Part shown: one piece after another, positions 20,582 to 54,882 of the stretch
Numbering within the stretch: position 1 is the stretch's first letter
Layout of the letters: every line of letters begins with the position of its first letter
Virus record (IMG/VR): IMGVR_UViG_3300045955_000216
Coordinates: 1 to 58,723 of that record
Source: a virus
Lineage: Duplodnaviria > Caudoviricetes
DNA length: 58,723 bases
Direction: 5' to 3' (one strand)
Position numbers and translations under genes: made by a program
The notes under the pieces: generated by a model
The model's database searches: none
What the model saw: the letters and a program-made list of their open reading frames with translations, nothing else
What the model was told of the DNA's origin: nothing

Positions 20582-20802
20582 CGCCGGCGCCCCTCGCGAA
20601 ACTCGCGGCGCATCTCCTCGACCGCCCTCGCCAGCCCCAGCATCGCCTCGACGAGGGTCGCCAGCTTGCCGTTCAGGCGCCAGAGAAAGACCCCGGCCAC
20701 CATCGCCGGAAAGCCGACCGCCTGAAACAGGTACACCGCCCACCGCAGGCTCGAGGGAAGATCCTCGGGCGCGTCGATCATGAGTGCTCCTGTATGGGAC
20801 AC
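20578..20802 (-). CDS. YvrJ-like small membrane protein/holin
   Basis: VGFPAMVAGVFLWRLNGKL. Confidence 0.6.
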   Translation of the reverse strand: MSHTGALMIDAPEDLPSSLRWAVYLFQAVGFPAMVAGVFLWRLNGKLATLVEAMLGLARAVEEMRREFREGRRR

Positions 20803-39716: not shown

Positions 39717-40634
39717 TCAGGCGCCCCCCAGGTACCATTGCCACACGTCCGGGCGGTCCTTCTTCAAGCGCGCCTTTTGGTCGTCGGTCATGGCGTGAAT
39801 CTGCGGGCGCGTGAGCCCGGTGCGAGCGGAGGTGGAACCGGGAAGAGCGCCGATCCCACGCGGCCGGTCGGCCGCGGCTACGACCTGTTGAACGGTCTCG
39901 CGGCGCCCGCGGGCTTCCCCACGGATCTCCGCGTCGGCTTCGCGTTCTTTCGCGAGGCGGCCCTGGGCGTACTCGTAGGCCGTCCGCGCGGGGTCTTCGG
40001 ACTGGTAGATGTGCTGGTAGAGCCACGGGTCCCGGGGGCGCCCGCTTTGCGCGTCCGGTCGGATGTCCGCCAGGACGCCGCTCCGGCGGAGGACGTCCCG
40101 GTAGTCCTTGTGGTCGCGCTCAAAGGCCGTCTGCGTGCGGGCCACCTTCTCGGCCACCAGGGCCGCATCGCGCGCCGCGAGCTCGCCCCGGACCCGTTGC
40201 TCGATGCGCTGCTCGAGGTCCGCGGCGATGTCGTTGAGGCTCTTGAAGCGGTTGGTGTCCTCGTAATTCGGCCGTTCCGGCTGACGCCGGGCTTCGGCTT
40301 CCCGGCGCGCCCGGGCGGCCTCCTGGTGGTACTCCTCCCGGAGCCGCTCGGATTCCTCGAACTTCCGCTGATACTCCTTCCGTCGGCTGCGCTCAGCATC
40401 GAGCGCCGCCTTCGGCACCATCGGGGCCCGCTTCTCCCCGTCCGGGGGGCGGGTCTCCGTCGCCGGGGGCGCGCCCTCGGCGGTCGTCGCGGCCGGCTCG
40501 CTGCCCTCGGCGCCCGGTGTCGGGGTCTCGGCGTCCGCCGGAACCTCGACCGGGACGTCCTGGAGCAAGTCCGCCGGGAGCTGGACCTCGAGGACCTCTT
40601 GATCCGGGTCGACCACTTGGGTCTCTGGTGCCAT
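39717..40634 (-). CDS. Scaffolding protein
   Basis: Acidic N-terminus, VP..AL..ER..RK, DPA..AY. Confidence 0.8.
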   Translation of the reverse strand: MAPETQVVDPDQEVLEVQLPADLLQDVPVEVPADAETPTPGAEGSEPAATTAEGAPPATETRPPDGEKRAPMVPKAALDAERSRRKEYQRKFEESERLREEYHQEAARARREAEARRQPERPNYEDTNRFKSLNDIAADLEQRIEQRVRGELAARDAALVAEKVARTQTAFERDHKDYRDVLRRSGVLADIRPDAQSGRPRDPWLYQHIYQSEDPARTAYEYAQGRLAKEREADAEIRGEARGRRETVQQVVAAADRPRGIGALPGSTSARTGLTRPQIHAMTDDQKARLKKDRPDVWQWYLGGA

Positions 40635-40698
40635 CGCTGCCTACCTCCCTGTGCCGGGTCTCACGGGCCGGCGTCCGATGGGCCTTGGTAACGGGGGG

Positions 40699-40773
40699 GC
40701 CTCCCCGAAAAACGACACGCGCGCCGGAGAGCTCCTGGGAGCCCTCGGGCGCGCGTGGTTCGCGTCTGCCCCG
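40699..40773 (-). promoter_or_regulatory. Conserved terminator-containing leader element, copy A
   Basis: CGGGGCAGACGCG-AAC-CACGCGCGCCC..hairpin..TTTTTCGGGGAGGC; second copy at 53681-53752. Confidence 0.7.
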
Positions 40774-40891
40774 GTCGGTCTCGGCGACCGGTGCTATCTC
40801 ATACGGGGACCTCGCGGGATCTCAACCGGGGACCGTTGTCGCATCGCTTCCTCTCTACCACACGTTTCCCGCGGCCTCGCGAGAACGGCCC

Positions 40892-42940
40892 TCACGGGGT
40901 CCGCATCCCGGCCTGGCGACGGGCCGTCGTGACGCCGTCCTTCGGGATCGGGAGCGCCCCCGGCTCGTAGGCGTTCGGCTGGCCCCGCTGGGTCCGCCCG
41001 GGGATCGGGGGCGGCCCGGCGGCCCCGGGCATCGCCGCCGCGGGCGGGGTGGCGACGGGGTTCCCGTCGGCGTCGATGAGGCCCTGCCGCTGCATGAGGG
41101 TCCGGATCCGGGCCAGGACCCGCTCCCGCTCCGGGATGTCCGAGAGCTCGACCACGAAGTCGACCAGGACCGGGGCCAGGGCCGGCGCGCGCTGGATCAG
41201 GTCCATGAGGGTCTGGGTCGCCTGCATCCGGGCGGTCGGGGTCGACGGCGAGTCGGCGATCATGACGTCGATCTTCACGTCGGGGATCCGGTTCGACGTG
41301 GTGATCGCGCCGCTCTCGGCGTCGACCTGGCGCTGGTTGAGGGTCACGAAGTCGGTGTCCGCCGCGCCGGTGTCCAGGCGGACCGTCCGCTCCGCGGTGT
41401 AGACCTGTTGGACGCGCTTCGCGAAGCGCCGGGCGATCTGCCGGCGGGACCGCTTGTAGTTGTCGAAGATGGCGGTCGCGATGATCTGCCCCTGTTGCTG
41501 CCGGCGCGCGATCGCGATGCCCGAGGCGTCGGCGTCCCGCTGCCCCATGAGGTCCGCGTTGACGCCGCTGATCTCCTTGATCTCCTGCTTCGCGACGGCC
41601 TGCATCTGCCAGACCCAGGGGGGCATCTGCGGCGGGGTGACCTGTTGCGGGACCGGGGCCTCGCGGCTCCGGAGCCAGTAGACGTGCCCGGCGCCCTGGC
41701 CGCTCTCGAGGCCGGACTCGTTCTCGAGGGTCCCGCGGTGGGCGAACCAGCGGATCGCGCCGAAGCGAGCGATGTTGTCGGCCATCGCGGAGCGGCGCTT
41801 GTTGACCTCCCGCTGGGGGTCCTTGAGGTTCCGGACGATGCCCAGGATCTCGTCGAGCTCGCGGTAGCAGACGAACGGGACGAAGGGGTAGTCCTGGGTG
41901 TCGTTCTCGAAGGGGTTCCCGTGCTCGAGCTCGATCCCGAGGGCCGGCAGGATGACGCTCATCTTGACCACGCGGCGCTGCCGGCGAATCACCCGGACGT
42001 CCTCGTCGCGCTGGGCCCAGGCCCGGGCGGCCTCGAGGGTGACGGGGTCGTCCGGGATCTCCTCGACGCGGTCCTCCCGGAGGTCCACGAGGAGGTGGAC
42101 CGTCTCCCACTCGCGGAACCAGGCTTCGACGATCCGGACCTCGTGGGCCGTCTCGTCGTAGAAGCTGATCGCGTCGAGGATGTCGCGCCGCCGGTAGTTA
42201 TCGAGCGGGTCGACGCCCTCGACGATCTGCTCGCGCACCTTGCCGGCGGCGACGGCGTAGGTCTCGACCGCCCGGCGAATATCCGTCTCGTGGTCCGGCC
42301 AGGCGGCCACCACGTCGTCGACCGGCACCATCCGATGCCAGAACTGCTCCCGGGCGTCGCTCCAGTCGTACCGCTCGCTGTAGGGATCGGCGAGCCACTC
42401 GCCCAGGCGGATCTTCCGGAGCTCGACCTCGCCGTGGATCGGGTCGCTGTCGTAGTTGATGCCGACCCGCCAGGTCCCCAGGCCCGTGACGACGCCGTCC
42501 TTGAAACCCTCCGAGAGGATCCACTCCCCGTCCTGGTTGTCCATCTCGCGCTTCATGAGGCGCCCCAGGAGGGTGACGTTCTCGAGGTCCTCGCGCCCCT
42601 CGGGGATCGGCTTGGCCTCGAGGCGCGCGGACCGCTCGTAGCCGGTCAGGACCTCGACGACCGGGCGGATCTCGTTGATCGTGAGGACCGTGCGCTCCTG
42701 GGCCTCGAGCTTCCGGCGGACGTCCGGATCCCACTGTTCGCCGATGACGAAGAGGTAGTCTTCGCCGGCCTGGCGGCGCCACCGCTGCCAGAGCGGGTGG
42801 GTCCAGTATTCGACGAACCGCTGCCGGAGCCGGTCCACGCGCGCCTGGGCCGCCGCCGGCTGGTCGGGCGACGCCGCGGCCCAATCGGGGTACCCGAGGA
42901 ACTTGCCAAGGGTCCGGGAGTGCAGCTCGCCGACGGCCAT
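40892..42940 (-). CDS. Portal protein, P22-like
   Basis: GEQW...LTINEI, LKDPQREVNKRRS, SGIAIARRQQQG. Confidence 0.92.
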   Translation of the reverse strand: MAVGELHSRTLGKFLGYPDWAAASPDQPAAAQARVDRLRQRFVEYWTHPLWQRWRRQAGEDYLFVIGEQWDPDVRRKLEAQERTVLTINEIRPVVEVLTGYERSARLEAKPIPEGREDLENVTLLGRLMKREMDNQDGEWILSEGFKDGVVTGLGTWRVGINYDSDPIHGEVELRKIRLGEWLADPYSERYDWSDAREQFWHRMVPVDDVVAAWPDHETDIRRAVETYAVAAGKVREQIVEGVDPLDNYRRRDILDAISFYDETAHEVRIVEAWFREWETVHLLVDLREDRVEEIPDDPVTLEAARAWAQRDEDVRVIRRQRRVVKMSVILPALGIELEHGNPFENDTQDYPFVPFVCYRELDEILGIVRNLKDPQREVNKRRSAMADNIARFGAIRWFAHRGTLENESGLESGQGAGHVYWLRSREAPVPQQVTPPQMPPWVWQMQAVAKQEIKEISGVNADLMGQRDADASGIAIARRQQQGQIIATAIFDNYKRSRRQIARRFAKRVQQVYTAERTVRLDTGAADTDFVTLNQRQVDAESGAITTSNRIPDVKIDVMIADSPSTPTARMQATQTLMDLIQRAPALAPVLVDFVVELSDIPERERVLARIRTLMQRQGLIDADGNPVATPPAAAMPGAAGPPPIPGRTQRGQPNAYEPGALPIPKDGVTTARRQAGMRTP

Positions 42941-44269
42941 CTAGAGGAGCTCCACCAGGATCAGGTAGGGGCGGACGCTCAGGTTCGAGCTCGCGCTACT
43001 GTGCTGCGCCGTGATCTCGAGTGTCTGGTCGGCGGTGGAGTCGACCGTCAGGCCCGTGTGGGGCGAGTGCCCGGCCGGGAGCGCCGCGCCTGGCTGCCCA
43101 CCCGTGACGCCCGCGTTCCCGGCCGACGGATCGTAGAGGCCGGAGAGCGAGCCGATCTGGGCGTTGGTCGCTCCGACCGCGTGGAGGAGCCCATCGTACC
43201 GGAAGGCGAAACGGGTCGCCGAGGCGTCAATGGCTACGCCGTTGAGCGTGCCGAAGGTCGTGCCGCCGTATTTCATCCGGACGGTCGTCGTGATGCCGCC
43301 GCCGGTGTCGTTCAGAAGGTCGAGGAAGACCGTGACGCGGAGGCCTCGGCTCGTGCCGAGCGTCCCGCCCTTGATGGTCGGGGCCGTCGTGAAGAGGGAG
43401 GTTTCCGTCGTCGTGTTGACAATGTTCTTGATCGGGTTCCCGACCTCGCGGAAGAGCACCCCGCTCAGGGCGACCGTCTGCCCCGTCGCGTCGAGGACGT
43501 TCAGCCGGTTGACCGCCGGGGTCTCGGTCGGGACGAAGAGCCGGACGCGGTTCGCCGACGGGGTCGACGGGGGCGTCATCTCCTCGAACTGGAAGTAGCT
43601 CGCCCCCGGGAGGGAGGCCGGGTCCACCTGGGGGAGCGTCGCCCCCAGGAGGACCGCCGTGACCGTGCCGGCGCCCCCGCCGCCGTAGGCGGTCGTGGCG
43701 ACCGCGAAGGCCCCCGCTGGCGGGGAGGCCGAGCTCGTCATGAGCGTCCCGCTATCCTGGGCGGCGAGCGTGGTGGCGCTCTTGACCAGGTAGCGGCCCC
43801 GGGTGACGTTCCCCTGGACCTTTACCGTCACCAGGCCCCGGTGGTAGAACTTCCCGGCGACGTTGTTGGAGATGGACTCGGCGGCGACGACATAGGTCTG
43901 GAGGCTGTTGAGCGTGTCCCCGAGCGTCACCGCGGAGTCGTTCGCGGTGTCGATGGCGACGACGTCGTTCACCGCGAGGGAGCCGCCGGTCTTGTTGGTG
44001 AGGGTCAGGTAGCTCGGGCCGTAGATGTCCGGCGCGGCGACCCAGGACCAGCCGTCGGACGCCCCGGTGTCCCGCTGGAAGAGCTGGCCCGTGGTGCCGC
44101 CGTCGATCTGGTGGCAGTCGTTCCAGTCGCTCGGCCGGACCAGAGAGGCGTCGGCGCCGTCCGGCTTGCCGGACACGAAGGAGTGCTTGAGGCACTGGGC
44201 GTCGGCCAGGCCCGGCGCCAGGCCGAGCCCGAGGGCCGCGAGCAGGATCCACGCGAGCGTGCGTCGCAT
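42941..44269 (-). CDS. Tail fibre/head fibre-like protein with signal peptide
   Basis: MRRTLAWILLAALGLGLAPGLADA; H.FVS.K.DG.D.SLVRPSDWN motif; Thr/Gly-rich. Confidence 0.6.
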   Translation of the reverse strand: MRRTLAWILLAALGLGLAPGLADAQCLKHSFVSGKPDGADASLVRPSDWNDCHQIDGGTTGQLFQRDTGASDGWSWVAAPDIYGPSYLTLTNKTGGSLAVNDVVAIDTANDSAVTLGDTLNSLQTYVVAAESISNNVAGKFYHRGLVTVKVQGNVTRGRYLVKSATTLAAQDSGTLMTSSASPPAGAFAVATTAYGGGGAGTVTAVLLGATLPQVDPASLPGASYFQFEEMTPPSTPSANRVRLFVPTETPAVNRLNVLDATGQTVALSGVLFREVGNPIKNIVNTTTETSLFTTAPTIKGGTLGTSRGLRVTVFLDLLNDTGGGITTTVRMKYGGTTFGTLNGVAIDASATRFAFRYDGLLHAVGATNAQIGSLSGLYDPSAGNAGVTGGQPGAALPAGHSPHTGLTVDSTADQTLEITAQHSSASSNLSVRPYLILVELL

Positions 44270-44282
44270 CGTCCTCACCTCC

Positions 44283-45074
44283 CTAACAGCCCACACCCAT
44301 GAGGCTGCGCGTCATCGGACAGGTCACCACCGCACCCTCTAGGGCGATCGTCATCATGCCCTTCGTGCTGTTGGCCGAGGTCGTGTTGGTCGTCGCCCCG
44401 TAGGCTCCGGCCGTCGCCTTCTCGCCGGTGACGAACATCACGCGCCCGTCGTTCCCCGAGGCGTGGCCGAAGTTGTTGGCGGCCGTGTCGTAGCTCGTGG
44501 TGATGTTCGCGAGGTCGGTGTTGGTCCAGGTCGCGCCGAAGTTCTGCGCGTCGTCCATGAGCGTCGCCGCGATGACCACGAGGCAGTTATCGGCCGTCGT
44601 CGTGGCCCCGGTCGCGGACAGGCTCGTGTCGCTGGTGGCGTCCACGTTGCCGGCCGTGATGTTCCAGGGGTCGCCGGTCGTCTTGACCCCCCGGAAGCAG
44701 ATCATCATCCCGGCGTTGTGGTCGCCGGCATCGTTCGTGGTCGGCCCGGTTGTGCCGCCGCCGTCGTAGCGCGCCCAGAAGACGGCGAGCCGGGTCGAGG
44801 ACGCGCCGCCGGCCGCCCCGGTGCCCTGGGGCGAATTGGTCACCTGCGCCCAGGTCTGGCTCCCTTGGGTCGCGATGCTGGAGGCCGTGGCATCGTTCGC
44901 GGTCTCGATGAAGAGCAGACACACATCGTTCGTCGCGAGCCCGGCCGGGAAGGCGACCTGGACCCCGCCGACGCCGTTGTTCGTGGTCACGTCGTTGACG
45001 ACGGTCGGCATCCCGGCCAGGGCCGGGCCGGCCAGGGCGAGGACACACGCGAGGGCGGCCAGCAAGCGGCGCAT
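44283..45074 (-). CDS. Beta-rich virion-associated protein with signal peptide
   Basis: MRRLLAALACVLALAGPALA; Thr/Gly/Ala-rich. Confidence 0.55.
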   Translation of the reverse strand: MRRLLAALACVLALAGPALAGMPTVVNDVTTNNGVGGVQVAFPAGLATNDVCLLFIETANDATASSIATQGSQTWAQVTNSPQGTGAAGGASSTRLAVFWARYDGGGTTGPTTNDAGDHNAGMMICFRGVKTTGDPWNITAGNVDATSDTSLSATGATTTADNCLVVIAATLMDDAQNFGATWTNTDLANITTSYDTAANNFGHASGNDGRVMFVTGEKATAGAYGATTNTTSANSTKGMMTIALEGAVVTCPMTRSLMGVGC

Positions 45075-45716
45075 TCAGTGGACCGGCACCGCGCCGGGGG
45101 TGCCGTGTAGCGGGACGGCCCCGGGGGTCCCGTGGTCGGGCGGGCTCGGGAGGGGACCGTGTTCGTCGCCAAGCTGCTCGAAGGACACATGCGCGAAGGT
45201 CGACGGTCCGGTCGCGCCGTCCCCGATCACGATTTGGGCGACGGTCGACGCGAACGCGACCGATTGCGGCGTGTTGCTCGACACCCAATCGTTGTGCGTC
45301 AGGTCGGCACTGGTGGCGTCGAGGAAGTTGTTAGCCGACGCCGTGTTCCCCGAGACGGTGAACTTGTCGGACCCGTTGTCCCGGATGATGGCTTTCATGC
45401 CGGTGCGGGCGTAGCTAGGATCGCCCATCGCCACACGCACGTTGTAGGTGCCGGCGGCGGTCAGATCGACGCGGACGGTGACCTCGCTGGCTTCGGCGCT
45501 GGGGAAGTGAAACCCCGCGAGCTTGGCGTTGTTGCTGCTATTCCGGTCGCGCTCCTGAATCCCAATCACCGAGGTATACCCGAATGTTACCCCGTTGCGG
45601 GTGACAGGGTAGTCTTCGCCGTTATCTCCGCCATCGTCGAGCAGATAGGTGTCATCGGCCGCGTCGGTGACGTATCCCGACGTCTGGCGGAAGTTGATCC
45701 CCTTCGTCCAGGCCAT
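45075..45716 (-). CDS. Putative carbohydrate-binding protein
   Basis: GTYNVRVAMGD jelly-roll motif; lower GC3; C-terminal HGTPGAVP repeat. Confidence 0.5.
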   Translation of the reverse strand: MAWTKGINFRQTSGYVTDAADDTYLLDDGGDNGEDYPVTRNGVTFGYTSVIGIQERDRNSSNNAKLAGFHFPSAEASEVTVRVDLTAAGTYNVRVAMGDPSYARTGMKAIIRDNGSDKFTVSGNTASANNFLDATSADLTHNDWVSSNTPQSVAFASTVAQIVIGDGATGPSTFAHVSFEQLGDEHGPLPSPPDHGTPGAVPLHGTPGAVPVH

Positions 45717-46018
45717 CAGTGCGTCCCGCTCATCGAGCCGTCATCGGGGATGGCGAAGATGCAGAGACTCACGGTGTCGGGGTCCAGCGCCACGAGATCA
45801 TGCATCGCTCGCGCCGGCACCTCGATCCACTCGCCGGGGCGCAACGTCTGCACCCGCGCCGGGGCGTTCTGGATGCGGACCTCGAGCCGCCCCGCGCAAC
45901 ACACCGTGATGTGGTCCTGCCCGTGGGTGTGGGCGGGCAGCGTGTCGCCCACGCCGTCGTAGTCCACGCGGCGCACGAACACGTGCCCAAAGAGCCCGTT
46001 ATCGACGGCGAGAGCCAC
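45716..46018 (-). CDS. Cupin-domain protein
   Basis: HTH..DH...G...W.EVPA..MH. Confidence 0.75.
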   Translation of the reverse strand: MALAVDNGLFGHVFVRRVDYDGVGDTLPAHTHGQDHITVCCAGRLEVRIQNAPARVQTLRPGEWIEVPARAMHDLVALDPDTVSLCIFAIPDDGSMSGTH

Positions 46019-46455
46019 TAGGTCGGCTCCGTCGCCGTGCCGGCATCGGGCCAGAGGCTTTGGTGGGGCGGCACCGTGGCGAGGAGCGTGTCCATGCCGT
46101 TGTTGATCTGCGCCGCGGTCGGGGTGCTTGTCGACAAGTTGAACTGTGCCGTGATGACGGGGTCCAGTTCCGTCAGGATGTCCACCGCGTCACTCTCCAC
46201 GACGCCGACGCGCTGGAAGCCGTTGAGCAGGACATCTCGCTTCGTGCCCGGCACGCGGAACGGATCGAGCCAGTCGAGGCGCTTGCGATACTCCCGGGCG
46301 TCCTGCTCCATGACGATCGCGACCTGCGCCGGGGTCCGGCCCGCCGCGAGGTTGGCCTTGTACGATTTGGCGTTGGCGCGCATGTCGCGCCGCAGCCCTT
46401 CGAGGTTGCGGATCACCTGGAGAAGCAGGGCAATACTTTCGAGCGCAGCCATCAT
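46018..46455 (-). CDS. Hypothetical protein
   Basis: Operon packing. Confidence 0.65.
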   Translation of the reverse strand: MMAALESIALLLQVIRNLEGLRRDMRANAKSYKANLAAGRTPAQVAIVMEQDAREYRKRLDWLDPFRVPGTKRDVLLNGFQRVGVVESDAVDILTELDPVITAQFNLSTSTPTAAQINNGMDTLLATVPPHQSLWPDAGTATEPT

Positions 46456-46461
46456 TCCCCC

Positions 46462-49065
46462 TTAGTCGTTCGCCGCGACTTCATACGAGATGAAGCCGGT
46501 AATGCGGCTTGAGCCCACTTGGGTCAGGCACACGTTGTTGGTGTCCACGCCGGTTTGCATGAAGGGCACCCCGGTCGCCATCGCCACCCCGCCTTGCGCC
46601 GCCGACGACACCCCGCTGCCCTCAGTCGTCGAGCCGATGATCGCCGTCGGCGAGGTCGCGCAGACGGAGCCCGTGCCCTCGATGAGGTTCCATGTCTCGG
46701 CCGCGTTCGCGTTGATGAAGATGGCGCAGAAGTAGACCCGCTGGCCCGAGGTGCCCGTGATGAGCTGCGTGTCGGCGGTCTGGCTGATCGCGATTTTCTG
46801 CGTGCAGGCGATCGGCTGCCGCACCGTCAGCCCGCGATCCGCGTTGAGCGGCCGCCCGGTCGAGGACTTGATCTCGTTCCCGGCGTCGTCCCGGATGCGG
46901 ACCGCCGAGTCGTTCGAGACCGTGACGCGCGGGATGCCGGACCCGCTCGCGCCCGTGCCGGTCACGGTGGCCGAGCCCCCGAACTGCGCGACGTTGACGC
47001 TCGCGTTCGCAGGGAGCGAGAGCACGTCCACCTGCAGCTCGCCGCTCGTATCCGTCGCGATGTCCTGCGTGTTGCCCGAGCCGTCCTTGCCGCCGATCCG
47101 CACGGGGTTCCCGGAGACGGCCGCCCCGTCGGCCGCCGTGCCGGCCACCGTGGCCGTCGGCAGCGTGAGGATGTCGACCTGCAGCTCCCCGTTCGTGTCC
47201 GTCTTGAGGCCCCGGAGGTTGGTCCCGTCCGTGCCCCCGGCATACATGGCGTGCGTCGGCGGGGACCCGCCCGGCGGGCGCTCGGCTCCCCACGGCGGGA
47301 CCGAGGGCGCGGACGTGGCGCGGAACGCCACCGTCGCGGTGCCCGAGGTGTACGCGTCCGCGCGGACGCGGACGTTCGAGACGCCGGCCAGGAACGGGAA
47401 CACGAACTGCCCGTTGGCGGTGATGGACTGCGTCATCGCCTCGCCCGCGATGGACCAGAGATCGGTCGCGGACCAGGTCGTCCCGCCGTCGAGCGAGACC
47501 TCGGGGATCAGGGTCGCGACCCAGGTCCCGGTGATCGTGACGCCGGCCCCGTTGATGCCCGCGCTCAGCGCGAGCGCCGACGTATCCTCGTCGGCCGTGA
47601 TGGTGTCGGACGCGGTCTGGACCGAGGCCCCGCCCGAGACCCGCAGGGCTCCGGTGCTGTCGACCTGGAGGACCGTGCGGTCCTGGTCGGCCGCGAGGGC
47701 GGTGCCCGCGTCGTTGCGGACCACCCCAGCGAGCGTGAGCTTGTCGCCGGAATTGTGGGCCGTGTCCTCGTCGTACTGCGTGCCGCCGCCAGCCGAGACC
47801 TCGTTGCCCGAGGCATCCCGGAGGTTGACGTGGAAGGCCCGGTTCTCGGTCAGACGCGCCGCTCCGGCCTCGCCTTCGGCAAGCGTCGACGGGGACGTAT
47901 CGTCCCGGTAGCCACCGACGGGCACCATGTTCCCGGATCCCGCCGTGAAGCCGGTCTTGTCTTGCTGGCTGACCCCGGAGCCCGTGCAGTTGCCGCAGTT
48001 GACGGCGAGCTGGTTCGAGCCGTTGACACTGGCGGTGTTGGTCCCGTCCCACACACGAACCGCTGAGTCGTTCGAGACAGTGACTCGAGGGATGCCCGCG
48101 CCCCCGGTGCCGGTCCCCGTGGCGACAGCCGATCCGCCGAACTGCGCGACGTTGAACGGCTCGTTGTCGGGGAAGCTCCCGATCGTGACCGAAGGAAGCG
48201 TCAGGACATCGACTTGTAGCTCCCCAGACGTATCGGTCGCGATGTCCTGGGTGTTGCCGGAGCCGTCCTTCCCACCGATCCGTACTGGGTTGCCGCTGAC
48301 CGCCGCACCATCGGCGGCGGGACCAGCCACCGACCACGGAGCCCCGCCCTGGTTCGCGGTGACCGTGCCCGAGACCGGCTGCGTGACCCCGGACCCGTCG
48401 ACGTGGAGCCGGCCGCTCGACACGTTGGCCTGCGTGGTGTCGCCCGCGCCGTCGCGGATAATGCCGTCCTGGTTGGCGGCGGTCGCGGCACCGGTGGGCA
48501 GCGGGAGCGACGCCGCGCTGATCGGCTGCGTGACGCCCGAGCCGTCGACGTGGAGCCGGCCGCTCGAGACGTTCGCCTGGGTCGTGTCCCCGGTGCCGTC
48601 GCGGACGATCCCGTCGTAGTTGGACACGGAGACCGTGCCCGTGACGGTGACGTCGTTGTTGGCCCCGAGGTTGACCAGGAGCCCGTCGGTGCTGTTCCCG
48701 GGGCAGCGGTCCCAGGTCGACCCGTCGAAGCAGTAGAGGTACGAGCGGATGATCGAGAGCGTGACGCTGTTGGACTCGTTGTCCGCCGGGGTGCCGCCGG
48801 CCGGGAAGCGGCCCGTCAGGGTGCTGTTGAGGAGCAAGGTCCCGAGGGTCGCCTCGGTGGCGGCGCCGGTCGGGAGCGGCAGCGAAGCGGCCGACACCGG
48901 CGACGTCACCCCGGAGGGATCCACCAGGAGCCGGCCGCTCGTGACGTCGGCCTCGCCCTGGCCGGCGACGCCGTCCTTGATCCGGACCGGGGTCTCGCCC
49001 TGGGCGAGGGCCAGGGTCGGGAGGAGGAGGAGCTCGAGGAGCCAGAGCGCCAGGATCCGTCGCAT
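46462..49065 (-). CDS. Repeat-rich tail-fibre-like protein with signal peptide
   Basis: MRRILALWLLELLLLPTLALA; VDGSGVTQP, SLPLPTGAAT and long internal repeats. Confidence 0.7.
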   Translation of the reverse strand: MRRILALWLLELLLLPTLALAQGETPVRIKDGVAGQGEADVTSGRLLVDPSGVTSPVSAASLPLPTGAATEATLGTLLLNSTLTGRFPAGGTPADNESNSVTLSIIRSYLYCFDGSTWDRCPGNSTDGLLVNLGANNDVTVTGTVSVSNYDGIVRDGTGDTTQANVSSGRLHVDGSGVTQPISAASLPLPTGAATAANQDGIIRDGAGDTTQANVSSGRLHVDGSGVTQPVSGTVTANQGGAPWSVAGPAADGAAVSGNPVRIGGKDGSGNTQDIATDTSGELQVDVLTLPSVTIGSFPDNEPFNVAQFGGSAVATGTGTGGAGIPRVTVSNDSAVRVWDGTNTASVNGSNQLAVNCGNCTGSGVSQQDKTGFTAGSGNMVPVGGYRDDTSPSTLAEGEAGAARLTENRAFHVNLRDASGNEVSAGGGTQYDEDTAHNSGDKLTLAGVVRNDAGTALAADQDRTVLQVDSTGALRVSGGASVQTASDTITADEDTSALALSAGINGAGVTITGTWVATLIPEVSLDGGTTWSATDLWSIAGEAMTQSITANGQFVFPFLAGVSNVRVRADAYTSGTATVAFRATSAPSVPPWGAERPPGGSPPTHAMYAGGTDGTNLRGLKTDTNGELQVDILTLPTATVAGTAADGAAVSGNPVRIGGKDGSGNTQDIATDTSGELQVDVLSLPANASVNVAQFGGSATVTGTGASGSGIPRVTVSNDSAVRIRDDAGNEIKSSTGRPLNADRGLTVRQPIACTQKIAISQTADTQLITGTSGQRVYFCAIFINANAAETWNLIEGTGSVCATSPTAIIGSTTEGSGVSSAAQGGVAMATGVPFMQTGVDTNNVCLTQVGSSRITGFISYEVAAND

Positions 49066-49532
49066 CACCACTCCGTCACGCGCGCGGCGCCCGCGCCGTC
49101 GCCCGTCCAGATGCCGTCAATGATCCCGGTGTACCCGGGGCGGACGTCGTGGGCTTGCTGGGGGGCGAGCTTCGCGGTGTAGCTCGTCGAGCTCGCGGTC
49201 GCGCCGTACTTGAGGAAGAGGGTCTCGGTGGAGTCGTTCACGATGATCGCCCCGATCCGCTCGGCGTTCGCCGCGAGGAGCGTGGTGCTGACATTGGCGT
49301 CGGCGACATTCGCGAGGGTCGCGGTCCCGTTCGTGCGCTCCCGGGTCCGCGTGACCAGGCCGGCGAGGCCGGTGGTCGGGTTCGCGCTCTTGACCTCGGC
49401 GATCTCCACCTGGGCGACGCCGCCGACCTGGACGGTCTCGCGGACGACCTTCGGGGTCCCGCCGTAGTCCTCGCTGTCGAGGTAATGGCCGGGGGTCGCG
49501 GAGCCCTCATAGGGGATCTGGGCGCGCGCCAT
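49065..49532 (-). CDS. Small beta-sandwich virion protein
   Basis: LLAAN..R.G.IIVNDS...YTGIIDGIW motif. Confidence 0.65.
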   Translation of the reverse strand: MARAQIPYEGSATPGHYLDSEDYGGTPKVVRETVQVGGVAQVEIAEVKSANPTTGLAGLVTRTRERTNGTATLANVADANVSTTLLAANAERIGAIIVNDSTETLFLKYGATASSTSYTAKLAPQQAHDVRPGYTGIIDGIWTGDGAGAARVTEW

Positions 49533-49535
49533 CGG

Positions 49536-49703
49536 CTAGGTGCGCCATGCGCGGAGCAGCGCCTCGAGGAGGACCGCCAACGGCCAGATGATCCGGAGGC
49601 GCTTGTGGCGACGGATCGCCACTAGGAAGAGGGACGGGGGCGTCGCCGGCGGGCCGCCCCCACCGGCCACGTTGCCCGCGTTGAGGAGGGGCGCGAGCGG
49701 CAT
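49536..49703 (-). CDS. Small hypothetical protein (55 aa)
   Basis: Hand-translated, fills gap. Confidence 0.4.
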   Translation of the reverse strand: MPLAPLLNAGNVAGGGGPPATPPSLFLVAIRRHKRLRIIWPLAVLLEALLRAWRT

Positions 49704-49706
49704 CGA

Positions 49707-50237
49707 CTACTCGAGCTCGCGGATCTTCCGGACGGCCTCGGCGCGCGCCTCGTCCGCCGCCTGGCGCTTGGCCTCCGCCTCGGCGGCGGCCGCCTCGTGG
49801 GCCTCGCGCTCGGCCTTCGCCGCCGCGAGCGCCTCGCGGGCGGCGATGAGCTCGGCCATCACGTCCGCGTGGTCGACGCGAAGCTGCGTGAGGTCCCGGT
49901 CCGCCTGGTCGCGGTCGGCCGTGATCCGGGTCAGCTCGGCCTTCATCGCGCCCAGACCGTCGGACAGCCCGCTCCAGGCCTGCTTGAGCCGCGCGATCGC
50001 CTGCTCGAGGTCCTGGCGCTCGGCCTCGCGCTCGACCGCCTGCGCGACGGCCGCCTCCTGGTCCTGCGCGATCTCGCGCTCGATCGCCTGGCGCCGGCGG
50101 TCCGCGTCCTCGGCGGCGCTCGTCGCCGCGTGGGCCAGCCGCAGGAGGTCCTCGAGCTTCCCGAGGGCCTGGCGGTACGGAGTGAGCGCCCCCAGGACGT
50201 TGAGGGCCTGCCCGTAGGTCATCTCGCGCTCTGCCAT
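49707..50237 (-). CDS. Coiled-coil protein
   Basis: Ala/Glu/Arg heptads. Confidence 0.7.
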   Translation of the reverse strand: MAEREMTYGQALNVLGALTPYRQALGKLEDLLRLAHAATSAAEDADRRRQAIEREIAQDQEAAVAQAVEREAERQDLEQAIARLKQAWSGLSDGLGAMKAELTRITADRDQADRDLTQLRVDHADVMAELIAAREALAAAKAEREAHEAAAAEAEAKRQAADEARAEAVRKIRELE

Positions 50238-50247
50238 CGCCGCCCCC

Positions 50248-50586
50248 TTACCCGCCGACCGTGAGCCGGACGGTCACGGTGGTGCCGGTCGTCACCAGCG
50301 GCCGGATGCTGTCGGTGTTCTCGAGGACCTCCCGGATGTCGGCGGCCGAGAAGGTCAAGGCGTTCCCCTCGCCGCGCGAGTCGTTGAGGACCCGCGCCGT
50401 CCCGCCGGCATCCTTGCCCTGGATGTCGACGGCCGTCACGGCGGCCCCGGACACCTCGACGGTCTTGTTCGGGTACTTGGCAAGGCCTGACATCCAGGCC
50501 CCGTCATCGCCCGAGCCCATCGAGGCCCAGGTGATCCGCTGCACGCCGACGCCGAGCTGCTCGATCGTAGGGACGACGGTTGCCAT
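50248..50586 (-). CDS. Small beta-rich virion protein
   Basis: W......DDG...IRP motif; GAGG RBS. Confidence 0.65.
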   Translation of the reverse strand: MATVVPTIEQLGVGVQRITWASMGSGDDGAWMSGLAKYPNKTVEVSGAAVTAVDIQGKDAGGTARVLNDSRGEGNALTFSAADIREVLENTDSIRPLVTTGTTVTVRLTVGG

Positions 50587-50598
50587 GATGGGGCCCTC

Positions 50599-51771
50599 CT
50601 ACCAGCGGTCATCCGGCACGCCGGCCGGGGGTTGGAAGCGTCGGTTGAGCGCCTCGAGCTCCGGGCCCGCCTGCCGCGCGGCCTCGGTGTTGACGATGAA
50701 TTCGCCGCGCGTCGCGTTGATCGGGACGCGGTCCCGCCCCGCCGGCCCCTGCACGCGGCCGCCGTGGTAGTAGTTGCCCAGCGCGTCGCCGCGCCCGGGA
50801 TCCCCGACGCCCCCGCCGGCCGCGCTGCCGGCCCCCCCGCCGGCCGGATCCGCGCCGCCGAAGCCATCCCGGGAGGCGTCGGCCCGGCCGACCTGGATCC
50901 CCTCGCGCGTGTTGTCGACGGGGCCCCAATCTCCCTCGTTGAGCCCGCCGTAGGACTGCTCGCCCCGGTCCGGCGCGGAGAGGGCCGTCGGCGCGGGCGC
51001 GCGGGTCGAGCCGCCGCCGCTGGACCGCCGGCTCGAGCTCGACTGGACCAGGGGCTCCGGCTCCGGGGGAGGCGGTGCCGGCGTCCGGTAACTGTAGAGG
51101 AGCGGCGCGTCCTGGCCGTAGCGGTAGCGGGCCTGGAGGGCGAAGAGGCGCGGGTCGATCGGGATGCCGAGGAGCCCGCCCGCGTAGTTGAACGCTTCGC
51201 CGGGGAGCTGAGTCCCTGCCGCCGGCGCCGCGAAGGTCGCCGTCTGGGCCTCGGTCTCGAGGCCGGCCTGGACGGGGGTGCCCGTGCCCTTGTAGACCCA
51301 GGTCCCCAGGATCGGGTTCCAGTCGGCGTCGATCCCGAGGGGCTTCGGCGGCGGCGCCGTGAGCGCCCCGCCCGCCATCGGGGCGAACTGGAACTTCGCG
51401 TCCTGGGGCCCGCCCTGGTAGCCGTAGTGCTTGTAGACCTGGCCGCCGTAGCTCGTGTCGAAGTCGCCGTACCCCGGCGTCAGGCCGGCGCCCACCACCG
51501 GGTCGAAGGCCATCGCGGAGATGGCGTCAAGGAGCCCCTGCTTGTACTCCTCGGGCGCCGTGATCCGGAAGCGGCCCGCGTCGGAATTCTCGAAGCGGAC
51601 CTTCCCGGCCCAGCCGGGGTTCCGCATGGACACGAGGTCGTGGAGGAAGTTGATCCCCCCGGTCCCCGCGGGCCCCCGGCCGAAGCGCGGATCTTCCCCC
51701 TCGAGGCGCATGAGGCCGCCCTCGAGCCCGGGCGTGACGGTCACGGGGACGACGGCACCCATAGGCGGCAT
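50599..51771 (-). CDS. Hypothetical virion protein with TMP-like C-terminal motif
   Basis: GGRVQGP..DRVP...GEFIVN..A...LEALN. Confidence 0.6.
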   Translation of the reverse strand: MPPMGAVVPVTVTPGLEGGLMRLEGEDPRFGRGPAGTGGINFLHDLVSMRNPGWAGKVRFENSDAGRFRITAPEEYKQGLLDAISAMAFDPVVGAGLTPGYGDFDTSYGGQVYKHYGYQGGPQDAKFQFAPMAGGALTAPPPKPLGIDADWNPILGTWVYKGTGTPVQAGLETEAQTATFAAPAAGTQLPGEAFNYAGGLLGIPIDPRLFALQARYRYGQDAPLLYSYRTPAPPPPEPEPLVQSSSSRRSSGGGSTRAPAPTALSAPDRGEQSYGGLNEGDWGPVDNTREGIQVGRADASRDGFGGADPAGGGAGSAAGGGVGDPGRGDALGNYYHGGRVQGPAGRDRVPINATRGEFIVNTEAARQAGPELEALNRRFQPPAGVPDDRW

Positions 51772-51774
51772 GGC

Positions 51775-53250
51775 TTACACCCCCATCCACGCGAGGTCCC
51801 GCCGGGCGGTGGGGCTCGGCAGGGTCGGGCGCGCGGGCTTGCGGTAGTAGTCCTCGACGGGGAAGCAGACGGACGCGAAGTAACAGGCCATGTGGCCGAC
51901 GTGGTCGTGGAGGCCCGAGGCGCGCTTGGCGGCCATCAGGGTCGGCGTGATCCGGCCGAGCGCGTCCTTCGGGTAGTGCCAGCCGCCGCGGAGCGCCCGG
52001 CGGAAGAGCTTGTCCTCGGGGTCGACCTGGAGGATCGGCCGGCCGCGGGACATCCGATTGAGGAGCGCCTTCAAGGCGTCGCGCCGGGCCGGCCAGGTGA
52101 TCGGCCCGTCCTCGAACATGGCGCGCGGGGCGTTCCGGCCGATCTGGGACGTCAGCCGCGTCTCGATGACCATGACCGCGGTGTGCTCGGCGTTCGATTG
52201 CTCGCGCTGCCGGCCCGCGGGGTCGCCCATGTCGCGGATGGTGCCCTCGAAGTGCCCGAGCCACTCCGACTCCCAGGGAAGGATCTGCTCGTCGATGAGC
52301 TGCTCGACGCCCTGGTTGACGCCCTGGAACGTCATGAGCTTGTTGACGTGGGCCAGCGGCGTGATCTGCCAGTAGCCGCACGTCGGGGTGAGCCCGAAGT
52401 CCCAGGCCCGCGCGATCGTGCCGTAGCGCAGGATCGGGAGCGGTTCCGCCGCGACGTGGGTCTGGTCGTTGTACTCCGGGATGACCGGCTCGCCCAGGAC
52501 GATCTGCCCGACCTGGCCCTCGACCAGGCGGGCCACCAGGTCGCCGCGGCCGGTCGCCTCGAGGGCCAGCCGGTTCTCCGCGCGCCGCTGGTCGGAGTAG
52601 TGGGCGTTCTCGCCCTTCGGGATCCGGAAGAGCCGGACCATCGGCCGCGTCCCGAGGGCCGGCATGGTGGCCCGGATCTTCGGCTCGAGCTCGAGCATCC
52701 GCTCGCCGACCTTGAGGGTCCAGTGGTCCTCGTCGGGCGGGTTGTAGGTAATCTGGATCCAGGCGTCGACGATGCCCGCCTGGCGGAGCGAGGTCGCGGC
52801 CACGCCGAAGACCTCGACGGGGATCCCGCCGGAAATGTCCGCGGCCGGGGCCGGCTCCTCGAGCCAGATGACGCCGGCGCCCATGCCTTGCAGCTTGTTG
52901 ACCTCGGCCATCCGGTCGAGCCCGAGGAAGCGGAGCTCGAGGAGTCCGTTGCCGACCAGGGCGCCCGTCTCGTGGCCCTGGCTATGGTCCCACTCGACGG
53001 CGAGCCCCTTGGCCTCAAGCTCGTGGAGCGTCTTGATCGCCGAGTCCCGGAGGTTGACCATCGTGTCGCGGATGACCACGCACTTGAGCGGGAGCGCCGC
53101 GCGGGGGATGTACCGCTGGGCCCGGTGGAGTAGGCGGTAGTAGCCGTGGGTCGTCTTGCCCTCGCCGCGGGGCCCCATGAGCATGACCACGAAGGCGGGC
53201 GACTCCATGAATTGCCAGCCCGTCCGCGAGGGCTGCATCCGGAAACTCAT
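51775..53250 (-). CDS. terL: Terminase large subunit
   Basis: GPRGEGKT Walker A, IWLEE Walker B, TYNPP, WDFGLTP nuclease motif. Confidence 0.92.
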   Translation of the reverse strand: MSFRMQPSRTGWQFMESPAFVVMLMGPRGEGKTTHGYYRLLHRAQRYIPRAALPLKCVVIRDTMVNLRDSAIKTLHELEAKGLAVEWDHSQGHETGALVGNGLLELRFLGLDRMAEVNKLQGMGAGVIWLEEPAPAADISGGIPVEVFGVAATSLRQAGIVDAWIQITYNPPDEDHWTLKVGERMLELEPKIRATMPALGTRPMVRLFRIPKGENAHYSDQRRAENRLALEATGRGDLVARLVEGQVGQIVLGEPVIPEYNDQTHVAAEPLPILRYGTIARAWDFGLTPTCGYWQITPLAHVNKLMTFQGVNQGVEQLIDEQILPWESEWLGHFEGTIRDMGDPAGRQREQSNAEHTAVMVIETRLTSQIGRNAPRAMFEDGPITWPARRDALKALLNRMSRGRPILQVDPEDKLFRRALRGGWHYPKDALGRITPTLMAAKRASGLHDHVGHMACYFASVCFPVEDYYRKPARPTLPSPTARRDLAWMGV

Positions 53251-53678
53251 TCGGGCATCACCACCGCGACGTGGCCGTGCTCGTCCGGGGCGCCGACCGG
53301 GGCGGGGAGCTCCGCGTCCGGGGTCGCCGGATCCGTGCCGGGCGGGAAGACGTACATCGGCTGGAGCCCCTCGAGGTTGACCTTGACGGCCTGGGGCGGC
53401 CGGCCGAAGCCGTGGTCCATGAGGTCCCGGCGGGCCGCGGCCCGGGCGGCCCAGGGCGATCGCGCGTTGCGGAGCGTGTGGAGGGCGTGGTCGACGAGCT
53501 CCTGGCCGTCGGCGGTCTGACTGCGGATGTACTCCCCGAGGCCCTTCGCGCGGCCGCCGGGGTTGCCCGACTGCCCCGGGAGCCACCCCTTCCCCGTGAC
53601 GCCGCCGAGCTGGTAGCCCTCACGGGCCGCCGGCGGGGCCGGGGGGATCGGGTCGTGGATCTTCGGGCCCTTCGCCAT
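53247..53678 (-). CDS. terS: Terminase small subunit (DUF5681-like)
   Basis: PGQSGNPGGRAK...D.GFGRP; upstream of terL. Confidence 0.8.
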   Translation of the reverse strand: MAKGPKIHDPIPPAPPAAREGYQLGGVTGKGWLPGQSGNPGGRAKGLGEYIRSQTADGQELVDHALHTLRNARSPWAARAAARRDLMDHGFGRPPQAVKVNLEGLQPMYVFPPGTDPATPDAELPAPVGAPDEHGHVAVVMPE

Positions 53679-53680
53679 CC

Positions 53681-53752
53681 GCCTCCCCGAAACAGAAACG
53701 CCCGCCGTCCTCCGTAGAGAACGACGGGCGCGCGTGATACGCGTCTGCCCCG
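53681..53752 (-). promoter_or_regulatory. Conserved terminator-containing leader element, copy B
   Basis: Same flanks as 40699-40773; stem with cUACGg loop and U-rich tail; TAGACT -10 at 53780-53775. Confidence 0.7.
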
Positions 53753-53782
53753 ATGCCTTGACTCGTCGCCGTCGAGTCTACG

Positions 53783-54025
53783 CTAGGTTCTGCGCTCTCC
53801 CGCGAGAGGGAACGGCGTGACCCCGTCGGTGGTCTCATACGCGACCACTTGCCCGCCGCCACAGGTCCGACAGACGTAGCGCGTGCTCGTCTTGCGGTGG
53901 CCCTTGTCCGAGAAGCGGCCCTGATGGAGGCTCACCGTGATGCTCCCCGTCCAGTCGGCGGGCCCGAGTGGAAACCCGACGCGGTGACCGTGGAGCATCA
54001 TCTCGAGGACCAGCGGGCCTTTCAC
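53783..54025 (-). CDS. Small protein with DUF2292-like segment and CxxC
   Basis: TGSITVSLHQG; CRTC. Confidence 0.45.
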   Translation of the reverse strand: MKGPLVLEMMLHGHRVGFPLGPADWTGSITVSLHQGRFSDKGHRKTSTRYVCRTCGGGQVVAYETTDGVTPFPLAGERRT

Positions 54026-54110: not shown

Positions 54111-54512
54111 TCACTCGAGCCGCCCGAGCGCCTCGAGCTTCTCGGCCACCTTCGCCTCGACCATCGCCTTCTGCTCCTGGAGCGTGACGATCTCCGCGGT
54201 CAGGCGCGCGACGATCTGCCGGAGCTCGAGGACGCGCGCATCATGGTCCGCCTTCGCCTGGGCCAGCGCCGACCGGAGGGCCATCAGGGTCTCCGCCGAC
54301 CGGCGCCGCGAGTCCTCGAGCGCCGCCTCCGTCTGGGCTAGGAGGACCTGGCGCTCCTCGAGGCGCTCCGCCTCGATCGTCGCCGCGTCCTTCCGCTGCG
54401 GGGCCCGGATCTTCACCTTCCGGCGTGGGGCCCGGAGCCCCGCCGGCGGCGCCGGCGGGCTCGGACGCGACGAGGGGGGGGGCGGGGTCGGCTTCGCGGG
54501 ACGCGGACTCAT
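54111..54512 (-). CDS. Coiled-coil hypothetical protein
   Basis: Heptads; GAGG RBS. Confidence 0.6.
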   Translation of the reverse strand: MSPRPAKPTPPPPSSRPSPPAPPAGLRAPRRKVKIRAPQRKDAATIEAERLEERQVLLAQTEAALEDSRRRSAETLMALRSALAQAKADHDARVLELRQIVARLTAEIVTLQEQKAMVEAKVAEKLEALGRLE

Positions 54513-54882
54513 ACGGGACCTCCCCCCGGCCCTCGCAGACCGGGCACGCGGGACGACACTCGAGGCCACGGGGGCCGGGCGGGGTAAGGAACCCGGCCCC
54601 CCGGCAGCGCGGACACCGCTGGGCTTCGCCCAGGCGGAAGCGGACCTCGCGCAGGACCAGGCCCCGGTCGGGCTTCAACCACTCGGCCCAGACACAGTCC
54701 GGCTCCCAGAGCCGGCGCCGCAGGAAGTCGACGGCCTCGGCGATCTGCGCGGTCCGGTACTTCCAGCCATACCAGCTCCGGGCGGCCCGCGGCGGTTCGG
54801 GCGGGAACGGCCGGACATCGTCGAGCGCCTTGGTGAGGACCGCGTGCGTGAGGATCCGCCACGGCTCCCACTCGTCGGCCAC
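54241..54882 (-). CDS. Hypothetical protein with DnaJ-type Zn finger (possible late regulator)
   Basis: AV..KALDD..A..FL; CPRCRGAG...CPVCEGRG. Confidence 0.55.
   Translation of the reverse strand: MADEWEPWRILTHAVLTKALDDVRPFPPEPPRAARSWYGWKYRTAQIAEAVDFLRRRLWEPDCVWAEWLKPDRGLVLREVRFRLGEAQRCPRCRGAGFLTPPGPRGLECRPACPVCEGRGEVPYESASREADPAPPLVASEPAGAAGGAPGPTPEGEDPGPAAEGRGDDRGGAPRGAPGPPSPDGGGARGLAAPVGGDPDGPPVGAGPGEGGP

Follow-up and report, generated by a model that had tools for sequence, protein, structure and literature searches.

Paired terminator-like leaders at the late operon heads of a soil phage, and a candidate antitermination gate

The 58,723-base phage genome IMGVR_UViG_3300045955_000216 carries two copies of a structured leader, one upstream of terS and the other between the portal and scaffold genes. 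Each copy joins a G-rich 5′ box to a small hairpin (P2), a longer GC-rich hairpin (P3) and a U-rich tract. Judged by sequence and comparison with relatives, this leader is an uncatalogued RNA family at the late operon heads of a clade with a P22-type portal and a PF13252 capsid. As to its function, we see an even chance that the copies are terminators close to a promoter, through which transcription continues once an antitermination factor of the phage has recognised the box together with P2.

The window analysed here is this whole record, a complete IMG/VR entry with a 127-nucleotide (nt) terminal direct repeat and 72% G+C. We call the phage G000, related genomes G001, G002 and G004-G007, and fetched stretches of relatives by L-numbers; L088, L005 and L257 hold the G002 leader copies, and L004 is from G001. 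G000 is a temperate uncultured soil phage and encodes a tyrosine integrase and a helix-turn-helix regulator.

Two leader copies with terminator-like ends

With its 24 specified bases, the pattern CGGGGCAGACGCG-NNN-CACGCGCGCCC has two exact minus-strand matches, 40773-40747 and 53752-53726, and no third place in the genome agrees with it to within three mismatches; 0.02 matches are expected by chance, and two or more were found in 0/100 shuffles. The two copies that a first-pass annotation had proposed ahead of terS and of scaffold/capsid thus read on the minus strand as it described them. Further downstream, the 12-mer TTTCGGGGAGGC (3′ box) occurs exactly twice, at 40710-40699 and 53692-53681. 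The sequences between the 5′ and 3′ boxes are unlike in the two copies, A and B, yet both form a long GC hairpin abutting a U-rich run, which bears out the description of the distal stem as variable but paired. Folding energies of 101-nt windows were −61.5 kcal/mol at one site (z −3.7; 0/200 shuffles as good) and −48.6 at the second (z −2.8; 2/200).

A consensus terminator scan detects both sites, and with a GC-rich hairpin directly 5′ of a U-rich tract they look like intrinsic terminators, as had been suggested. On the minus strand of the whole genome, just three windows hold at least six T in nine bases and no A, namely site B, site A and a position near 20690; Candidate intrinsic terminators are therefore very scarce in G000, and the leader sites account for two. 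The parts of the two copies are given below, with scores from a covariance model (R2) described in the next section and folds from minimum free energy (MFE) prediction.

53681-53753, minus strand: leader copy B, upstream of terS (exact motif, fold, R2 55.4 bits)
53744-53752, minus strand: 5′ box CGGGGCAGA of copy B, with a G-rich homologous box in relatives
53731-53743, minus strand: P2 of copy B, CGCGU-AUC-ACGCG, in the MFE fold; the stem covaries across relatives
53699-53730, minus strand: P3 of copy B, a 14-bp GC-rich terminator-like hairpin (−29.6 kcal/mol over the 45 nt that precede the U tract)
53689-53698, minus strand: U tract of copy B, UUUCUGUUUC, 7 U in 10
53688-53682, minus strand: predicted terS ribosome-binding site GGGGAGG, 3 nt before the ATG at 53678
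40699-40774, minus strand: leader copy A, downstream of portal and upstream of scaffold (exact motif, fold, R2 64.1 bits)
40773-40765, minus strand: 5′ box CGGGGCAGA of copy A (exact motif)
40752-40764, minus strand: P2 of copy A, CGCG-AACCA-CGCG, read from the sequence; an identical P2 occurs in L167
40716-40757, minus strand: P3 of copy A, a terminator-like hairpin of 10 bp + 8 bp (−33.3 kcal/mol)
40707-40715, minus strand: U tract of copy A, UCGUUUUUC, 6 U in 9

The two copies differ in how P2 and P3 relate. In the MFE fold of copy A, 40757-40748 pairs with 40725-40716; the 3′ arm of P2 is thus also the base of P3, so that P2 and the long P3 are mutually exclusive. In copy B, P2 and P3 are adjacent, unlike the competing helices of copy A. 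The proposal that a 5′ binding box overlaps the left arm of the terminator therefore holds at site A and fails at site B. Many MFE folds also show a closing helix (P1) in which the box pairs either with the U tract or with the bases that follow, but not consistently from one instance to another, and we do not claim it.

The 3′ box fared differently. TTTCGGGGAGGC alone is weak evidence, with 0.73 matches expected at up to one mismatch and two or more in 16/100 shuffles. It had been presented as a conserved flank, but the identical 3′ box is specific to G000 and is not conserved in relatives. Nor is it one element: at site B it comprises the end of the U tract and the terS ribosome-binding site, and at site A it is part of a hairpin in the scaffold 5′ untranslated region (UTR).

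40675-40707, minus strand: second conserved element, a GGGG-AGGC-CCCC hairpin followed by GUUACCAAGGC, identified by eye; it holds the 3′ box of copy A

This UTR element takes the form of a GGGG-N(3-5)-CCCC hairpin followed by GU.A(U/C)CAAGGC and is placed downstream of terminator A, ahead of the scaffold start codon. By eye, the same element was recognised in L083 (~470-500), L084 (~3555-3520), L092-L094, L101, L102, L159 and L170. Its presence even in relatives without a terminator leader suggests a possible role in the translation or stability of the scaffold/capsid mRNA. Upstream of scaffold in L180 (~1280-1560), tRNA-like genes on the opposite strand were noted by eye only.

The third U-rich window has a different setting.

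20681-20711, minus strand: terminator-like hairpin followed by UCUUUCUCUG, after a 2616-aa open reading frame (ORF) and without box or P2

It is probably the end of the late transcription unit.

The leader in related phages

Relatives were gathered through several scans. A terL scan found 159 relatives and, with capsid lookups, led to G001 (capsid 84%), G002 (71%) and G004 (50%). Single-protein scans with terS, portal and capsid had returned 1, 0 and 1 relatives, hence the use of capsid-alignment scans, which kept 80 of 164 relatives among viral contigs and 80 of 141 among metagenome contigs. An exact-pattern scan of viral contigs with the box gave no match. Aligning the leaders with MAFFT left P3 out of register, so covariance models were iterated instead (R1 built from 5 sequences and R2 from 8). 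The gaps upstream of scaffold and terS were also read.

These approaches yielded 17 leader instances in 14 records: two in G000, three in G002, and one each in G001, G004, L096, L099, L101, L102, L159, L167, L168, L170, L172 and L176. Twelve are supported by R2 (the 8 seeds together with L168, L005, L167 and the third G002 copy) and five were recognised by eye. In 425,804 bases, the non-seed R2 matches were L168 (E 0.016), L005 (0.051), L167 (0.11) and L091 (0.92); the third G002 copy scored 32.9 bits (E 6e-6). At the thresholds used, R2 misses L170, L176, L096 and G001-B. Two candidates were left uncounted, L101:5525-5591 (R2 E 0.11), which lies inside a coding region, and L091:5968, in a doubtful region. 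A descriptor search of 1,445,594 bases returned 25 rows, 21 plus and 4 minus, in which the same place is repeatedly counted; it misses G000-A, L005, L170, L176, L168 and L004 and gives six further candidate matches (L013, L015, L091:5968, L103, L122 and L126).

The conserved layout is a G-rich box (GGG-N-C-A/C-A/G-A/G), P2 of 3-5 bp directly 3′ of the box, a GC hairpin P3 of variable sequence and length, and the U tract. The arms of P2 change together between records: CGCG/CGCG, ACUC/GAGU, CUC/GAG, CCUG/CAGG and CUG/CAG, and further CCG/CGG, CCGC/GCGG, CUUCU/AGAAG, CGU/ACG and CGG/CCG. When 12 sequences are aligned to the model, the share of paired cells is 94.5% compared with 68.9% in shuffles (0/500 as high), 7/10 base pairs show both-sided changes, and the covariation score is 0.570 compared with 0.145 in shuffles and 0.011-0.074 for slid partners; these figures lean towards structure because the alignment was fitted to the structure of the model. 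The conservation and covariation proposed as a check were thus found. As relatives keep the box and a covarying hairpin 5′ of the terminator at the same positions, the 5′ box is a functional-looking element, not a duplication remnant, in agreement with the annotation's view of it as conserved.

Box and P2 stem are the same among the copies of one genome (two in G000, three in G002), and the stems differ between genomes, as expected for a specificity factor encoded by each genome. The loops of P2 differ between copies: AACCA and UAUCA in G000, and UUA, UGUU and GUA in G002. The L167 leader has the exact P2 of G000 with an unrelated P3.

This pattern also bears on what P2 might bind. The annotation had allowed for a ligand, which is unlikely because the P2 stem is the same within a genome and different between genomes. 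Ending in a terminator, the element does resemble transcriptional riboswitches; a riboswitch or ligand-sensing attenuator would, however, have only ~25 nt for its aptamer, the P2 sequence differs between genomes, and there is no Rfam match; we consider it extremely improbable. The Rfam search that had been proposed found no known family: Rfam 15 gave no match in the window at the gathering threshold and none at E <=1 in 6 loci (25,630 bases). A limited literature search returned no description of the leader or of its associated protein families.

Promoters, late genes and the proposed gate

A strict sigma70-type promoter, defined as TTGAC(A/T)-18-xAxxxT and agreeing with the consensus at 9 or more of 12 positions, has its end 12-22 nt upstream of the box in 6/16 instances, compared with 3.2% of random 130-nt windows. 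The third G002 copy (L257 ~1035-1112, minus strand, which is G002:C1:33635-33706) has its own promoter, TTGACA-17-TATATA; in L099 and L102 the spacer after TTGACT is longer, and the −10 element lies ~29-35 nt from the box. By their sequence, transcripts from such promoters would start a few bases before the box and, if terminated, would be ~75-100 nt long. Before the G000 boxes, the only −10-like hexamers are TAGACT and TGAGAT, 22 nt upstream, and other high-GC instances likewise have no strict sigma70 promoter.

In several other instances, the stretch from the −10 hexamer to the box contains UAGA(G/U) motifs. Separately, the 9-mer ATGAGATAG lies upstream of the site A box (40783-40791, minus strand) and also in L101 (~1706-1714) and L159 (~1705-1713), relatives with only ~50% capsid identity; it might serve as a promoter element, form a minimal start-Arg-stop ORF or have arisen by chance.

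The G002 copies precede terS, scaffold/capsid, and a pair of genes for a holin-like 110-aa membrane protein and a 157-aa lipoprotein, which by sequence features only is a probable lysis cassette. The three copies have a regulon-like layout. The holin-like protein, the lipoprotein and an upstream 279-aa protein of G002 had no tblastn match in G000 at E <=0.01, and because these lysis-region proteins have no G000 homologue, a third gate cannot be placed in G000.

The late genes of G000 that follow the two leaders are these, with coding limits taken where needed from G+C content at third codon positions (GC3).

53247-53678, minus strand: terS, 143 aa (DUF5681 E 2.7e-5, below cut-off; GC3 0.96)
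51775-53250, minus strand: terL (PHROG 2; start set by the GC3 profile)
40892-42940, minus strand: P22-type portal gene (PF16510 E 2.7e-107)
39717-40634, minus strand: probable scaffold gene, 305 aa, by position only and without family match
38552-39697, minus strand: major capsid gene (PF13252 E 3e-45; phrog_334)

The annotated gene context is thus borne out: terS, with its weak DUF5681 match, and terL follow site B, and site A lies between portal and scaffold/capsid. G000 genes are mostly on the minus strand, where the order is unknown early genes, a zinc-finger gene, a coiled-coil gene, a small gene, site B, terS and terL, followed by ~9 kb of unknown genes, the P22-type portal, site A, scaffold, capsid and further late genes. 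The 603-aa ORF of terL is over-extended at its 5′ end (window 53247-53586); GC3 places the start at 53250, where it shares an ATGA with the terS stop. Among the genes between terL and portal, an 869-aa ORF (46462-49071, minus strand) contains several internal direct repeats, 63-153 nt long and 61-85% identical; it had no family match and may be a fibre- or repeat-type virion protein. The 2616-aa ORF (window 20860-28710, minus strand) is a late gene without Pfam match. The nearest capsids of cultured phages are ~32% identical to that of G000, and a scan of genome contigs found only 3 distant prophages (27-29% identity).

We propose that RNA polymerase would stop at P3 and the U tract unless a phage factor made from the upstream, earlier genes were present. 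The single-stranded G-rich box, P2 and P3 with its U tract would form a ~75-nt module of the late mRNA, and the factor would recognise box and P2 on the nascent RNA or load onto polymerase there. Read-through at copy B would then open terS, terL and onwards to portal, and at copy A scaffold, capsid and the genes beyond. At copy A, a stabilised P2 would remove the six basal pairs that place P3 beside the U tract. Such a conditional antitermination gate fits best because, in relatives, a promoter fires into the terminator at late operon heads and the RNA element is genome-specific.

We consider it unlikely that the sites are ordinary, unregulated operon-boundary terminators or attenuators whose box and P2 reflect ancestry or tune terminator efficiency, mRNA stability or processing. 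The G000 sites do lie exactly at operon junctions, the box-less third terminator closes the late region, a strict promoter is missing before the G000 copies, and the module is missing or degenerate in close relatives. An unregulated terminator nevertheless makes little sense because in relatives the module adjoins sigma70-type promoters from downstream: a strong promoter <25 nt before the box, as in 6/16 instances and the third G002 copy, would be wasteful unless the stop were conditional or the short RNA were the product. Moreover, G000-A and L167 have unlike P3 hairpins but retain the box sequence and the pairing of P2, and P2 covaries.

RNA data speak to read-through at one site. Four soil metatranscriptome runs contain the phage at low depth, as assembled contigs from which strand and ends cannot be read and in which DNA carry-over is possible. 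Contigs of two runs cross site A (X18 40480-40826 and X22 40623-40821), which is compatible with read-through and would fit unregulated terminators that some molecules pass; their upstream ends at 40826 and 40821 are at most a weak hint of a 5′ end. None of the listed RNA-library contigs crosses site B.

The short terminated RNA might itself be the product. A promoter, a short 5′ segment, a small hairpin and a Rho-independent terminator with a U tail are the typical layout of a small-RNA gene, and StxS, made from PR′-tR′ in Stx phages, is a precedent (PMC7547250). On this account an RNA of ~70-100 nt, with the box as its seed, would function in the manner of StxS, possibly alongside gating. 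We rate it as quite unlikely: the module is always sense and directly precedes late operons in which no separate promoter lies between the terminator and the start codon, several copies occur per genome, each at an operon head, and no convincing target was seen among plus-strand near-matches to the box.

Candidate factors and comparison with known systems

Two genes upstream of site B are candidates for the factor: the small beta/zinc-ribbon protein at 54025-53783 would qualify by synteny, and the zinc-finger protein at 54882-54480 by weak Q-like matches.

53783-54025, minus strand: small gene, 80 aa (72-aa form on record), a candidate factor by synteny only
54480-54882, minus strand: zinc-finger gene with two CxxCxGxG motifs, by GC3 profile; the open frame continues to 54241
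~54111-54512, minus strand: coiled-coil gene in another frame, by GC3 profile, conserved in G001 (L004 1726-2172)

The small gene had been called DUF2292-like, an assignment that found no support, as the G000 protein matched 0 Pfam families at E <=1 and 7 relatives gave no DUF2292 match. Its family has 20 members among 5.8 billion proteins searched and an architecture of N-terminal helix, beta hairpin, Arg/Lys-rich linker and Cys4 zinc ribbon, the ribbon being degenerate in the G000 and G002 proteins. A profile of the family found 9 records, 8 of which hold the leader in the same fetched stretch, and the small gene lies directly upstream of the leader in G000-B, G002-B, L099, L102 and L159. 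The AlphaFold model of the G000 protein was unusable (predicted local distance difference test, pLDDT, 62.8). That of family member P0003 (pLDDT 80.1, predicted template-modelling score 0.39) had no Foldseek match at E <=0.001 (best 0.88), and its best VIA Z, 3.4, was to generic zinc ribbons. In a PDB profile search, the best match of the small protein was an archaeal small zinc-finger protein (E 0.0024), over the zinc ribbon only.

The zinc-finger gene, annotated at 54241-54882, is indeed present upstream but is coding only from 54882 to ~54480; its 213-aa ORF is over-extended, because GC3-type coding ends at ~54480, where the coiled-coil frame (window 54111-54569) takes over. Members of its family match PHROGs labelled 'anti-termination protein Q-like', phrog_6060 in 4/7 (best E 3.5e-4) and phrog_127 in 2/7 (6e-3). 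The protein matches the Pfam DnaJ zinc domain below cut-off and, in a PDB profile search, the DnaJ zinc domain only. Among 1.84 billion representatives, 8 proteins are related to the zinc-finger protein at E <=0.001; a word search gave no homologue and Atlas no match. No phage RNA polymerase or sigma factor was found by Pfam among the 59 ORFs of G000.

The leader might instead be a DNA-level site: a Q-type factor (the zinc-finger protein) could load there or use it as an operator, a late activator could act there, or it could be a pac/cos signal. The weak Q-like PHROG matches of the zinc-finger family favour this, and copy B stands just before terS, where pac or cos often sit. We hold such a site to be very unlikely, since the P2 arms change jointly between genomes with complementarity kept, the distance from −10 to box varies (12-22 nt for strict promoters, ~29-35 nt in L099 and L102), and a packaging signal would not recur before capsid and lysis genes.

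Among known systems, the proposed gate would resemble lambda PR′-tR′/Q in logic and N/nut in the form of its site. The lambdoid late leader has a PR′ promoter, a short 6S/StxS RNA, the tR′ terminator and the Q antiterminator (PMC7547250). The likeness is that a temperate phage has, at its late-gene head, a constitutive-type promoter that fires into an intrinsic terminator ~100 nt further on. Promoter followed by terminator at the late head is seen here in relatives (6/16 and the third G002 copy) but not at the G000 copies. A regulator gene just upstream, for which the candidates above would stand here, and a short terminated RNA as by-product would be shared as well. There are, however, two or three gates per genome here against one in lambda, and an RNA box with a covarying hairpin in place of the DNA Q-binding element and sigma-dependent pause site. 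Nothing like a qut DNA element was seen: the distance from the −10 element varies, the hairpin covaries as RNA, and no −10-like hexamer lies inside. Pfam found no Q family among the 59 ORFs, and the Q-like PHROG matches are weak and fall on the zinc ribbon.

Lambda N is an arginine-rich peptide that acts at nutL and nutR, each a boxA with a boxB hairpin. As there, a single-stranded box followed by a small hairpin would stand on the nascent RNA and is repeated in the genome, in two copies in G000; the hairpins are genome-specific, and in lambda they co-vary with a small basic phage protein. The leaders here differ in heading late operons with a terminator fused to the site, whereas nut sites serve early operons, and in that the candidate protein has a zinc ribbon while N is only an arginine-rich peptide. 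No N homologue was found by Pfam or PHROGs in G000. Because the leader lacks what defines either system, we set it apart from both lambda Q and N/nut.

The HK022 putL and putR RNAs are two structured RNAs downstream of promoters that act in cis on polymerase and are not known to need a protein or a terminator of their own. A factor-independent antitermination RNA of this type, which would make polymerase termination-resistant, is suggested by two hairpins right after a promoter, 2-3 copies per genome and the absence of an N or Q family by Pfam. We see only a slender chance of it. P3 is terminator-like and followed by a canonical U tract, which put RNAs are not known to have; neither its sequence nor its length is conserved, although an RNA that binds polymerase should be constrained; and the genome-specific identity of the stem points to a co-evolving protein.

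LoaP, a NusG paralogue, recognises a small leader hairpin upstream of intrinsic terminators in bacterial polyketide and polysaccharide operons. The proposed gate would share with it a leader hairpin recognised by a specialised antitermination factor, here the candidate factor, upstream of intrinsic terminators; the difference is that no NusG-family protein was detected in G000.

The zinc-finger protein Com of phage Mu activates translation of mom and has the selection motif GAG(N)2CC (PMC6483171). The systems share a small zinc-finger gene next to a short hairpin which, ahead of late genes, borders an inhibitory RNA structure or competes with it; at site A, bases are common to P2 and the foot of P3. 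Com, though, activates translation and is not known to relieve termination, and the box-to-P3 part of both G000 copies has no GAG(N)2CC. No candidate protein matched Com (PF10122) by Pfam. Two observations concern the motif in sister phages. In L168 (334-634), a different Cys4 zinc-ribbon gene precedes a leader with two GAG(N)2CC motifs, and GAG(N)2CC lies at the P2/P3 junction in 3/3 G002 copies (L088 ~1020, L005 ~3612, L257 ~1090), against a background of 0.13 per 40 nt. Its presence in L168 and G002 suggests that different zinc-finger regulators and matching RNA motifs occupy the same slot in sister phages. A bolder version of the proposal, which we offer tentatively and would not favour as it stands, is that the orphan family of 20 proteins binds box and P2 and opens up to three late operons (packaging, head and lysis) at once, the regulator-leader pair being swappable as a cassette with Com-type zinc-finger/GAG(N)2CC pairs that sit at the corresponding position in sister phages.

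Several observations weigh against the proposed antitermination gate. In the closest relative, G001 (capsid 84%), copy B has no U run and copy A is absent, and G005, G006 and G007, the last a complete 89-kb genome, have one copy each; because these genomes have fewer or degraded copies, the two-copy design is not general and the module is dispensable. Before scaffold, no terminator leader is present in L089, L092-L094 or L097 (capsid identity 50-68%). Five of the 17 instances were recognised by eye only: G001-B, G004-A (E 0.92), L096, L170 and L176. P2 has just 3-5 bp, its pair counts come from a structure-fitted alignment, and its loops vary from copy to copy, in contrast to the boxB sites of N proteins, which are loop-specific. 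No strict sigma70 promoter lies in the 130 nt before either G000 copy. As for the factor, the small protein has no Pfam or PHROG family, the Q-like matches of the zinc-finger protein are weak and confined to the zinc ribbon, which matches the DnaJ zinc domain too, and, of the fetched stretches, only those of G000 and G001 contain the zinc-finger family.

The timing of late genes is understood mechanistically in few model phages, through lambda N and Q, HK022 put, P2 Ogr and T4. The leader family described here sits at the late operon heads of a soil phage clade that has no cultured relative, and its ~75-nt module is testable. If it proves factor-dependent, it would add a new protein-RNA pair to the few antitermination systems and might provide a small orthogonal transcription switch.

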